64,000 nucleotides of DNA from positions 1 to 64,000 of IMG/VR virus record IMGVR_UViG_3300020433_000671, one strand, 5' to 3'. Of this stretch, positions 790 through 3,836 are shown one piece after another. The translations under genes were made by a program, and so were the position numbers. Position 1 is the first letter of the stretch. Each line of letters opens with the position of its first letter. The notes under the pieces were generated by a model. It had not been told where the DNA came from and made no database searches. It saw nothing but the letters and a program-made list of their open reading frames with translations. This stretch comes from a virus.

Positions 790-890
790 AATAAGTAGGG
801 CACAAAGGGTAGTGCGATACTATATTCCGATCAATCCCTTCACTGATCGGTATGAGAGACTTGCTTTACTTCCCCACAGGTCTCGGTTAA
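790..890 (-). ncRNA. PhotoRC-II-like structured 5' leader of psbA
   Basis: Stems GAGAC/GUCUC (856-884), CCGAUCA/UGAUCGG (827-850, loop GUGAAGGGAU) and GCAC/GUGC (800-815, loop containing ACCCUU, complementary to AAGGG). Location upstream of a phage psbA fits the PhotoRC-II motif. Confidence 0.75.
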
Positions 891-925
891 AGGGAAGAGA
901 AATGTCTGTTTTTCAAGACACATAT

Positions 926-954
926 ATTATATATGAAGTTTTGTATCTTGTCAA
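926..954 (-). promoter_or_regulatory. Consensus sigma70 promoter for psbA
   Basis: TTGACA-N17-TATAAT on the minus strand. Confidence 0.85.
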
Positions 955-956
955 GT

Positions 957-1532
957 TTATTTTGTCATCCAATCAAGTACCTCTGATGGAAGTTTACCAA
1001 CTCTAGGATCACTGTCCTTTACTGTATGGGGATCCATTTCACCCTTGGGGAGATATGTAAGTTCACGAAGTGACCTAACATTGGGATTGCTTGTAACATT
1101 AGTGGGCAATCGTCCAAGAGCGACATTATCATAGTTGAGTTGATGTCTGTCAAATGTAGAAAGTTCATACTCCTCCGTCATTGATAGACAATTTGTAGGG
1201 CAATATTCTACACAATTTCCACAGAATATGCAAGCACCAAAATCTATCGAATAATTTCTTAATTCTTTTTTCTTCGTCTGTTTATTCATTACCCAGTCAA
1301 CGACTGGTAAATTTATAGGACAGACTCTAACACATACCTCGCATGCGATACACTTATCAAACTCATAGTGTATGCGACCACGATATCTTTCTGAGGGTAT
1401 GAGTTTCTCATATGGATACTGAACCGTGACAGGTCTTCTACCCATATGGGATAGTGTTACAGAGAAACCCTGCAACAGATATTTAGCAGCGTCTTTAACT
1501 TCCTTTATGTAATTAAAGATGCCTTTTATCAT
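957..1532 (-). CDS. ndhI: NAD(P)H-quinone oxidoreductase (NDH-1) subunit I
   Basis: VTVQYPYEK...RYRGRIH; two 4Fe-4S motifs [12 protein letters not shown] and [12 protein letters not shown]. Confidence 0.97.
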
Positions 1533-1693
1533 GCTTTTTTACGCTTAGATTTAGATAATGTAACAACCCACGTTGCCAATCCTAGTATTACTAGAGTAGT
1601 GATTGCTGATATAGTGGGGAAAGGATAGTCTACACCAGGTGCCTCCCATGTTCCAGGAAGTAAGTAGACTGAAGGTTTGGATAAAAAGATCAT
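1529..1693 (-). CDS. 54-aa single-TM protein between ndhP and ndhI
   Basis: [17 protein letters not shown]...[28 protein letters not shown]; ATGA overlaps with both neighbours. Confidence 0.8.
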
Positions 1694-1821
1694 CGTTTTA
1701 CGTCGTGAGCACAACCGTCACCTGAATATTTATCTGTGTCATAGTATCCACCCTTTGTTCCGAAGAAAAGTGTTAGACCTACGAATGGTAGTGCAGTAAG
1801 TATTAGGACGGTTTCAAACAT
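1690..1821 (-). CDS. ndhP: NDH-1 small subunit NdhP
   Basis: Manual translation [43 protein letters not shown]; TM helix plus the FFGTxxG(F/Y)YDTDxYxGxGxAH signature of NdhP. Confidence 0.9.
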   Translation of the reverse strand: MFETVLILTALPFVGLTLFFGTKGGYYDTDKYSGDGCAHDVKR

Positions 1822-1830
1822 TGCTCTCTT

Positions 1831-1859
1831 ATTATACCAATAGAAAAGGGAACCGTCAA
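1831..1859 (-). promoter_or_regulatory. sigma70 promoter for the ndhP operon
   Basis: TTGACG-N17-TATAAT; the -10 box is only 9 nt from the ndhP ATG. Confidence 0.75.
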
Positions 1860-1868
1860 GGTTCCCTG
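1844..1868 (-). terminator. Rho-independent terminator with a -35 box in its loop
   Basis: AGGGAACC-TTGAC-GGTTCCCT followed by TTT. Confidence 0.75.
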
Positions 1869-2473: not shown

Positions 2474-2563
2474 TTAAACAATTACACCAGTTACTGTACT
2501 GATGCTTGCTGCTAACATAAAGATGTAAGGTACTACTTTAAATGGTACAGGTTGTCTTTTCAT
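2474..2563 (-). CDS. 29-aa membrane peptide at the end of the hli operon
   Basis: MKRQPVPFKVVPYIFMLAASISTVTGVIV; TAATG coupling with the upstream hli. Confidence 0.65.
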   Translation of the reverse strand: MKRQPVPFKVVPYIFMLAASISTVTGVIV

Positions 2564-2676
2564 TATACAATACCTGGTATAAGTTGACCTGTTGTTAAGT
2601 AGGTTCCACATAGGAGAATGAATCCCAACATTGCGGGACGACCTACTGCTCTCTCGAAGATGTCTTTGTTGTTCAT
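2563..2676 (-). CDS. hli: High-light-inducible protein, divergent
   Basis: MNNKDIFERAVGRPAMLGFILLCGTYLTTGQLIPGIV; TGQxIPG tail typical of marine multicopy Hlips. Confidence 0.85.
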   Translation of the reverse strand: MNNKDIFERAVGRPAMLGFILLCGTYLTTGQLIPGIV

Positions 2677-2834
2677 TATACAAAACCTGGAATGATTTGA
2701 CCTGTTGTAAAGTAAGCACCTAGTGCTGCGATGATGCCGAGCATGGCGAATCTACCATTAAGTTTCTCAGCAACGATTTTTTCTCTTTCAATGCCGTAGT
2801 TAGCATTTTCTACTTTTTTCTCTGCTTTTGCCAT
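2676..2834 (-). CDS. hli: High-light-inducible protein
   Basis: MAKAEKK...AEKLNGRFAMLG...TTGQIIPGFV; start at 2834 coupled to the upstream stop. Confidence 0.95.
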   Translation of the reverse strand: MAKAEKKVENANYGIEREKIVAEKLNGRFAMLGIIAALGAYFTTGQIIPGFV

Positions 2835-2941
2835 TAGAAAATACCTGGTATGATGTTTCCTGTTGTTGCGTAAGCACCGACTGCTGCTACGAAACCGAGC
2901 ATTGCTGCCCAACCATTGAATCTTTCTGCTTCTGGTGTCAT
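2834..2941 (-). CDS. hli: High-light-inducible protein
   Basis: MTPEAERFNGWAAMLGFVAAVGAYATTGNIIPGIF; AAGGAG SD. Confidence 0.95.
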   Translation of the reverse strand: MTPEAERFNGWAAMLGFVAAVGAYATTGNIIPGIF

Positions 2942-3033
2942 TGTTTTAAACTCCTTTCGTTAGATTTGTAATAGGGTTAGAAAGTGACTAGCATTTTATA
3001 CACATTTGCTAGTGGTGTAAGAGACCTTTTATC

Positions 3034-3147
3034 TCAGAATAAGCCAGGTATTACCCAACCTGTGAAACCGTAGTTAACTACGGCAGCGAAGAAACCCATC
3101 ATCGCAAGGCGACCATTGATTTGTTCTGCGTTCTTCCAGTAGTTCAT
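3034..3147 (-). CDS. hli: High-light-inducible protein
   Basis: MNYWKNAEQINGRLAMMGFFAAVVNYGFTGWVIPGLF. Confidence 0.95.
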   Translation of the reverse strand: MNYWKNAEQINGRLAMMGFFAAVVNYGFTGWVIPGLF

Positions 3148-3345
3148 TTAGAATACACCTGGAATAATTTGTCCTGTGGTAGCGTACGCACCAATGAGTG
3201 CAACGAAACCAATCATTGCCCAACGACCATTTACTTTCTCAGCATTCTGAGGATATCCATCGTAGTTGATAGACTCATCAATGTATGGACGTACGTCCGT
3301 TGGATACATGTTCTGGCGACCTCCGCCTTCAGTAATAACTGTCAT
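3148..3345 (-). CDS. hli: High-light-inducible protein
   Basis: TEGGGRQNMYP...AEKVNGRWAMIG...TTGQIIPGVF. Confidence 0.95.
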   Translation of the reverse strand: MTVITEGGGRQNMYPTDVRPYIDESINYDGYPQNAEKVNGRWAMIGFVALIGAYATTGQIIPGVF

Positions 3346-3371
3346 TGTGCTTTGTAAAGAACTGTAACAAT

Positions 3372-3400
3372 ATTATATATAAAAGATTAAGTTTTGTCAA
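3372..3400 (-). promoter_or_regulatory. Consensus sigma70 promoter for the hli cluster
   Basis: TTGACA-N17-TATAAT. Confidence 0.85.
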
Positions 3401-3455
3401 GAGGTGCGGTCTATTAAAATTCCTTATCAATGCCATAAGATATTGATAAGCAATG

Positions 3456-3482
3456 AAAAAGGGGGGATTACCTCCCCCCCTT
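3456..3482 (-). terminator. Rho-independent terminator
   Basis: G-run/C-run hairpin (GGGGGGA-GGTAA-TCCCCCC) followed by TTTTT. Confidence 0.75.
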
Positions 3483-3557
3483 AAAAAAATGTCTAAATCG
3501 CTATGTGCAACTAGCTTACTGTTAAAAACCATCTAGTTTATAGTCTATTGGCAAAGA

Positions 3558-3836
3558 CTAGTTGAATGTAACTGTATCAGTCTCAGTGTTCAAATTTAAG
3601 TTAATTGGTTGACCTGTTAGAAAATCTGTAGGATCAGAAAATGTAACAGTTTTGGTACACAAATTATCAGTATCGATATTAAAACTTATTGTATCCTGAT
3701 CAAGTTGTTTTGCAATTCCTTTGATGCCTTGATAATGTCTCCAGATCTCAGTCTGTATATTTGCATCAACATTATTCTCTAAAGCATCCTTGACACAATC
3801 TTCAAGTGCTTGTATTGCTGTTAGATAGGGGTTCAT
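3558..3836 (-). CDS. Hypothetical protein
   Basis: 92-aa ORF with its own promoter. Confidence 0.75.
   Translation of the reverse strand: MNPYLTAIQALEDCVKDALENNVDANIQTEIWRHYQGIKGIAKQLDQDTISFNIDTDNLCTKTVTFSDPTDFLTGQPINLNLNTETDTVTFN

Follow-up and report, generated by a model that had tools for sequence, protein, structure and literature searches.

PsbN is an assembly factor of the photosystem II reaction centre. A cyanophage protein family, T4-GC163, has been described as a 'possible photosystem II PsbN' and was both universal in and exclusive to the Prochlorococcus-isolated myophages that were compared (Sullivan 2010, PMC3037559), and phage ndhI and ndhP genes are also already known (PMC10452541, PMC12801897). 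In P-TIM40 ndhP is coupled straight to ndhI, while in P-TIM68 the corresponding pair is TQO-ndhI. The locus described here lies on an IMG/VR virus record that is 75,490 bases long, with an estimated completeness of 42% and the gene content of a T4-like cyanomyovirus; the window refers to the whole 64,000-nucleotide stretch of this record that was analysed. As in P-TIM40 and P-TIM68, an overlapping gene for a small or membrane protein precedes ndhI within an AMG island near photosystem genes, but the window differs from both in carrying orf54, an ORF of 54 codons. We propose, with a probability of roughly 60%, that orf54 is a PsbN-like short paralogue that serves as a docking assembly or modulation factor for a host photosynthetic complex, rather than a stoichiometric subunit of NDH-1.

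The cassette and its flanking signals all lie on the minus strand of the window, and are given here in the direction of transcription.

1847..1867, minus strand: GC-rich hairpin of 8 pairs, 5 of them G-C, then TTTTCT; overlaps the -35 hexamer
1831..1859, minus strand: putative sigma-70-like promoter before ndhP, TTGACG-17-TATAAT, TG-extended, 11/12 matches
1690..1821, minus strand: ndhP, 43 aa, small single-helix subunit of NDH-1L
1529..1693, minus strand: orf54, 54 aa, a short form in the cyanophage N-motif / PsbN-like family that lacks the tail
1643..1693, minus strand: N-motif of orf54, residues 1-17, columns invariant or nearly so
1553..1615, minus strand: orf54 transmembrane helix (residues 27-47, approximate); the basic stub SKSKRKKA follows
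957..1532, minus strand: ndhI, 191 aa, two CxxCxxCxxxCP 4Fe-4S motifs
926..954, minus strand: putative sigma-70-like promoter of psbA, downstream of ndhI, 12/12 matches
814..909, minus strand: PhotoRC-II leader of psbA, RF01717, 63.9 bits, E 8e-10

The 3′ end of ndhP reads ...GTA AAA CGA TGA and the ATG of orf54 shares that stop as ATGA; orf54 in turn ends ...AAA GCA TGA, with the ATG of ndhI again overlapping as ATGA. When the DNA was re-read and translated, the original prediction of an ndhP-orf54-ndhI cassette with two ATGA overlaps proved right in every coordinate, and the promoter that it placed ahead of the cassette corresponds to the sigma-70-like site at 1859-1831, with psbA downstream. 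The start of orf54 is placed at the ATG at 1693, rather than at the TTG at 1714 upstream, because the homologues all begin M-I/F-F-L-S-K-P-S and the bases before the ATG vary among loci. Downstream the cassette is bounded by psbA's own promoter and PhotoRC-II leader (814..954, minus strand), ahead of the psbA ATG at 776. The hairpin and T-run at 1847..1867 are likely to be the terminator of the upstream DUF7191 gene. That gene (45 aa, 73.8 bits) is one of three more microproteins encoded upstream of ndhP at 1892-2427 on the minus strand, the others being a hydrophobic ORF of 33 aa (phrog_17067) and an ORF of 59 aa that combines a helix with a poly-Asp tract (phrog_7843). Five short hli-type genes of 35-65 aa, with ...NGRxAMxGF... 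motifs and overlapping or abutting stops and starts, occupy 2563-3345 on the same strand, likewise upstream of the cassette.

The two genes that flank orf54 could be assigned to known families. NdhP was recognised by a length of about 40-45 aa, an N-terminal helix, a C-terminal GGYYDTDxYxGxGxAH motif and likeness to the solved subunit, and the 43-aa ORF previously proposed to be NdhP at 1821-1690 has all of these; it has the C-terminal motif in common with the solved NdhP chains and aligns over residues 5-39 with the PDB chains 6khi_P (E 1.4e-8) and 6hum_P (E 6.6e-8). It also matches phrog_2173 of the PHROGs (E 8.6e-18) and shares 69% identity with the P-TIM68 protein annotated as 'putative NADH dehydrogenase subunit P'. 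The 191-aa protein scores 315.1 bits against the NdhI family TIGR00403 (equivalog cut-off 302.35) and contains Fer4 domains in Pfam. Both of its 12-residue CxxCxxCxxxCP motifs are intact, in agreement with the earlier assignment as an NdhI with two 4Fe-4S clusters, and the gene has 81% nucleotide identity to ndhI of P-TIM40 and P-TIM68.

The tight coupling of the three genes had been taken as a sign of stoichiometric co-assembly, with orf54 an unrecognised NdhQ-like subunit of NDH-1 that would assemble together with phage NdhP and NdhI and favour cyclic electron flow. It would seem unlikely that this is the case. Within the window, on crude gene calls, an ATGA overlap with the downstream ORF occurs at 18 of 102 gene ends (18%) and a -4 or -1 overlap at 27 of the 102; ATGA coupling is the usual style of this genome, and since 18% of gene ends overlap in this way the overlaps are uninformative on stoichiometric co-assembly. 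In its size and single helix, and in being encoded by ndhP and ndhI, orf54 does resemble NdhP and NdhQ of cyanobacterial NDH-1L. These, however, are cellular proteins with no sequence similarity to it, and NdhP is already present as a separate gene upstream. Comparison of orf54 (by phmmer) and of a nine-sequence profile with all PDB chains gave no match to NdhQ, NdhL, NdhP or any other NDH-1 chain at E≤10. Host NDH-1, moreover, works without orf54, which was not found by an N-motif scan of 185,579 species genomes in the cyanobacterial genomes that encode NDH-1.

The relatives that were found are of a different kind. Against the PHROGs orf54 matched phrog_33944 over its full length (E 6e-9) and phrog_8051 over residues 1-19 only. 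In tblastn searches of GenBank phages full-length relatives were recovered, for example S-SSM7_166, along with many matches that cover the first 17 residues only, with identities of up to 94%. The latter are the starts of the T4-GC163 proteins P-SSM2_167, P-SSM7_021, P-SSM4_007.1, P-TIM40 gp125 and P-TIM68 gp139, and P-TIM40 gp125 and P-TIM68 gp139 are already annotated as PsbN. In the family alignment all members have ten residues followed by x-L-P-G-T-W-E, then a short linker and a single hydrophobic helix, with M1, F3, P7, L12, P13, T15 and W16 invariant. The family can be defined by M-I-F-L-S-x-P-S-V-Y-x-L-P-G-T-W-E at the very start of the protein and by one transmembrane helix some 10-20 residues past it, in a small protein encoded on cyanomyovirus DNA; orf54 has both features. 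Alignment of the orf54 subfamily to the long forms with hhalign gave a probability of 98.5% (E 1.7e-15, 49 columns).

Beyond the helix the proteins diverge. The long forms, of about 100 aa, go on as ...GxGKKxLRDxIDEHAKMHELGIAHGHGG..., whereas orf54 ends in SKSKRKKA. Long and N-motif-less relatives score 19.8-29.1 bits against Pfam PsbN (PF02468, cut-off 25); orf54, in which the stub replaces the conserved C-terminal tail, has no match to PF02468 at E≤1. Cellular PsbN likewise has a single N-terminal helix, with its C-terminus on the cytoplasmic/stromal side, but retains the conserved tail and lacks the N-motif. From these comparisons orf54 is a short paralogue of T4-GC163 without the acidic/His-rich PsbN-type tail, and its relationship to PsbN runs through the long forms. 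PsbN-like function may not carry over to orf54, because the conserved PsbN tail and the Pfam match are both absent. T4-GC163 proteins (P-SSM2_167, P-SSM7_021, P-TIM40 gp125, P-TIM68 gp139) have the N-motif and the helix after a short linker in common with orf54 and are likewise phage-only, but have the ...GxGKKxLRDxIDEH... tail with a His-rich extension and are encoded in replication or structural regions rather than at ndhI. The same architecture of motif, helix and basic tail, in 52-59 aa, is seen in S-SSM7_166 / T4-GC646 and the other short N-motif proteins of phrog_33944; S-SSM7_166 itself (55 aa, 48% identical to orf54) is encoded right after gp45. Unlike orf54, these proteins are encoded after gp45 or at other sites where the flanking 3 kb hold no ndh gene, and only the orf54 subfamily has the linker DYPFP and W42.

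In other searches with orf54 no family of Pfam (E≤1) or NCBIfam was matched, PDB sequence and profile searches gave chance matches only (a putative uncharacterised protein and KEX1), and the ESM Atlas was uninformative, returning only unnamed clusters, all below 0.9. A homologue search for longer proteins starting from orf54 also gave no match; this carries little weight, and the long forms were reached in other ways. The NdhQ-like identity originally predicted is not borne out, as orf54 has no similarity to NDH-1 chains of the PDB and no cellular homologue among the species genomes scanned, and is homologous to T4-GC163 instead.

The original description of orf54 as a 54-aa single-TM protein agrees with its AF2 model, in which residues 27-53 form a confident helix (pLDDT 81-97), and the basic tail of that description is the SKSKRKKA stub. 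The N-motif is modelled as a non-helical coil with a pLDDT of 54-63, the behaviour expected if the peptide needs a partner in order to fold. Selection on the two parts of the protein differs markedly. Among nine members of the orf54 subfamily dN is 0.013 and dS 0.43 for codons 1-17 (dN/dS about 0.03), compared with 0.245 and 0.37 for codons 18-46 (dN/dS about 0.67). The constraint is at the protein level and in the motif, because dN is far below dS there, unlike in codons 18-46; strong purifying selection acts on the N-motif rather than on the helix, which only has to remain hydrophobic. A nucleotide-level cause for the conservation of the motif was considered and is ruled out by the variation at synonymous sites (dS 0.43).

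The high dN/dS of residues 18-46, together with the resemblance of orf54 to the first half of the long form, might suggest that it is the truncated, functionless and decaying leftover of a PsbN-like gene. This we consider extremely improbable, given a dN/dS of only about 0.03 in the motif against a dS of 0.43. In more than 20 loci, with identities as low as 57%, the subfamily also retains its length, its basic stub and the GCATGAT overlap with ndhI, and several independent short subfamilies exist within the N-motif family. By its pattern of conservation orf54 is a genuine, selected cyanomyovirus gene for a single-pass membrane microprotein.

Members of the family are always small and seem confined to phages. 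A profile run against 1.84 billion representative proteins returned 46 clusters, all of 41-117 aa; essentially all of them carry the motif N-terminally, and several are obvious assembly chimeras. A scan with the N-motif pattern of 185,579 prokaryotic species, each represented by one genome, gave six loci, of which five share cyanomyovirus genes with the phage loci (as does the P-TIM40-like terminase region of a 'Nonlabens' assembly) and the sixth is a 13-residue chance match, so that no cellular homologue of orf54 was found in these species genomes. The N-motif family thus appears to be restricted to cyanophages, and among these to cyanomyoviruses. Cyanomyovirus-like contigs (L169-L173) are binned under Methanobacteriota, Lentisphaeria, Gammaproteobacteria, Synechococcus and Nonlabens xiamenensis labels; the Synechococcus contig is 194 kb in size, and the Nonlabens xiamenensis contig is 188 kb and 98% P-TIM40-like over the terminase region. 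The orf54 subfamily itself was not found in GenBank phage isolates.

In the close subfamily, with proteins of 52-54 aa and identities of at least 57-65%, the association with ndhI is strict. Where the locus extends far enough to be informative, ndhI lies directly downstream of orf54, or after ndhP, in 11 of 11 loci on viral contigs, and it is adjacent in 11 of 11 on metagenome contigs, making 22 informative loci with some contigs present in both collections. The adjacency is kept across at least seven local gene orders, in which ndhP, psaJ and an 82-aa membrane ORF (orf82) are shuffled. In the orders below a slash marks genes that abut or overlap.

ndhP/orf54/ndhI: window, L009, L262-L264
ndhP/orf82/psaJ/orf54/ndhI: L010, L016, L017, L268
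psaJ/orf54/ndhI: L271
orf54/ndhI/ndhP: L011, L012
orf54-ndhP-ndhI: L021, L272
ndhP/orf82-orf54-ndhP/ndhI/psaJ: L270, with two ndhP copies in one metagenome cassette
orf54/ndhI, no ndhP nearby: L014, L015, L018, L019

In L017 (positions 2485-3661; the same contig as L268) ndhP-orf82-psaJ-orf54-ndhI form a five-gene ATGA-coupled cassette, the psaJ of which is confirmed by Pfam (60.3 bits). The orf82 product is a membrane protein without a family match, and its gene is also found directly before ndhI in L158.

The orf54 subfamily is genetically locked to ndhI, or to ndhP-ndhI. In a tree of NdhI the orf54-linked proteins form a well-supported clade of their own, but the NdhI of the window falls in the other, main clade, adjoining loci without orf54, and the DNA homology of the window to these orf54-less relatives begins exactly at the ndhI ATG. 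Because of this placement and this point of onset, the pairing of orf54 with ndhI can be placed on two NdhI lineages. That orf54 stays by ndhI or ndhP in every informative locus despite rearrangement, and that the pairing survives a swap of the ndhI allele, speak for the NDH-1 subunit reading, and the strict adjacency argues for a more NDH-specific role than our preferred explanation assigns to orf54. The linkage to ndh genes that the original prediction leaned on holds for the close subfamily at every informative locus but fails for the wider family, which is mostly unlinked: ndh genes are absent from the 3 kb around the other short forms and around some 50 long forms, apart from a few exceptions that share the same island (L059/L165, L083, L088). 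Genes of the wider family instead adjoin gp45, terminase, dam and similar genes, and that the conserved part of orf54 is common to proteins encoded at such sites counts against an NDH-1 subunit. Nor is orf54 a regular companion of phage ndhI, being absent from P-TIM40 and P-TIM68 and carried by 5 of the best 80 of 199 viral ndhI loci, with other genes upstream in the remaining 75. The 80 were ranked by similarity to the window NdhI, with the orf54-linked clade at the lower end of the list, and because this ranking disfavours that clade the share among all 199 may be higher.

Where orf54 is missing, ndhI is preceded by hydrophobic ORFs of 24-30 aa, a basic 36-mer, ndhP, gp55, PTOX, TQO/DoxD, nrdB or psaJ. 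On three viral contigs (L114, L133, L135) a quinone-pool enzyme, either PTOX-like (167 aa) or TQO/DoxD-like, is encoded directly before ndhI. At least five unrelated hydrophobic ORFs of 24-30 aa fill this slot (MKDLPIRSS..., MKTYLL..., MNHALF..., MIYHAAV... and MIEQLF...), often coupled by ATGA. The MKDLPIRSS...AYV ORF, of 28-30 aa and with no Pfam match, shares an ATGA overlap with the start of ndhI in at least 11 loci (L101:2415-2504; L089, L092, L107-L109, L116, L121, L126, L127, L159). Such a series could mean that the ORF acts in cis as a membrane tether, whereby a hydrophobic nascent chain carries the coupled ribosome, together with the mRNA, to the thylakoid membrane and NdhI is synthesised beside membrane-bound NDH-1, the identity of the peptide being of minor importance. 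The almost neutral evolution of the orf54 helix would fit, as would a crude hydropathy test in which 23 of 48 distinct ORFs before ndhI have a hydrophobic segment compared with 17 of 111 window-wide, a roughly threefold enrichment that is confounded by AMG islands and shared descent. We nevertheless regard a tether as quite improbable for orf54. It leaves the conserved N-motif, with its strong protein-level constraint, unexplained, and many ndhI genes follow genes for soluble proteins (gp55, nrdB, the basic 36-mer). A trans-acting function of orf54 is indicated, because the N-motif is constrained as protein and is common to paralogues that are not associated with ndh genes.

Two orf54-carrying virus records, one of them complete at 202.5 kb, encode in addition a separate PsbN-like protein of 59-67 aa that lacks the N-motif and starts at the helix (Pfam PsbN 26.5 bits). 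The complete genome has one N-motif gene. P-SSM7, P-SSM2, P-TIM68 and P-TIM40 each have a single match to the family, a long form with the motif, and S-SSM7 has one strong short-form match and two weak ones. These counts would fit 'one N-motif per genome', a scheme in which orf54 would provide the motif to genomes whose PsbN-like gene has none. In the window's own 75-kb record, 42% complete, there was neither a second family member nor an N-motif-less PsbN. The N-motif-less protein, of 59-78 aa, is common in uncultured cyanophage contigs, with 80 loci at ≥87% identity (L178:1495-1698; L181:1492-1671; L182-L261), and was not found in GenBank phage isolates. That orf54 accompanies every N-motif-less PsbN gene can be ruled out, as 77 of the 80 loci have none within 4 kb; because the N-motif-less form mostly has no orf54 nearby, the view of a split gene rests on the two virus records.

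In the preferred reading, of orf54 as a membrane-anchored docking factor, the protein would insert into the thylakoid membrane N-out/C-in. This topology is predicted, by the positive-inside rule, solely from the charge bias, five positive charges after the helix as against a net -1 before it; PsbN is reportedly also C-in/N-out. Such an orientation would put the extended N-terminal peptide on the lumenal side, docked onto a photosynthetic complex of the host that orf54 may help to assemble or modulate, in the manner of PsbN with PSII. In NDH-1L structures NdhI lies on the side opposite the lumen. A membrane-anchored docking peptide is favoured over an NDH-1 subunit because the predicted lumenal motif would be on the face opposite NdhI. 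Co-transcribed and translationally coupled with NdhI, orf54 would be made alongside the phage's cyclic-electron-flow parts, and for this reason NDH-1 or NDH-1/PSI is the most plausible field of its action. A bolder version, which we put forward only tentatively and think unlikely, has the subfamily as a virus-invented accessory or assembly factor of NDH-1, or of an NDH-1/PSI cyclic-flow supercomplex, that lacks any cellular counterpart and was built from the recycled docking peptide and membrane anchor of the phage PsbN-like protein. In that case the N-motif might serve phages as a general 'handle' on thylakoid complexes, and the other hydrophobic ORFs before ndhI might do a related job.

In the literature searched there was no description of the orf54 subfamily, of the tie between its N-motif and T4-GC163 or of its strict linkage to ndhI. 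The analysis defines an unannotated, apparently phage-only microprotein subfamily that shares a constrained N-terminal peptide with the cyanophage 'PsbN' gene, and two uncharacterised pieces of the cyanophage takeover of photosynthesis are now linked. The 17-residue motif provides a concrete target for tests of thylakoid binding partners, and if it is truly a docking peptide a core cyanophage gene would be explained.
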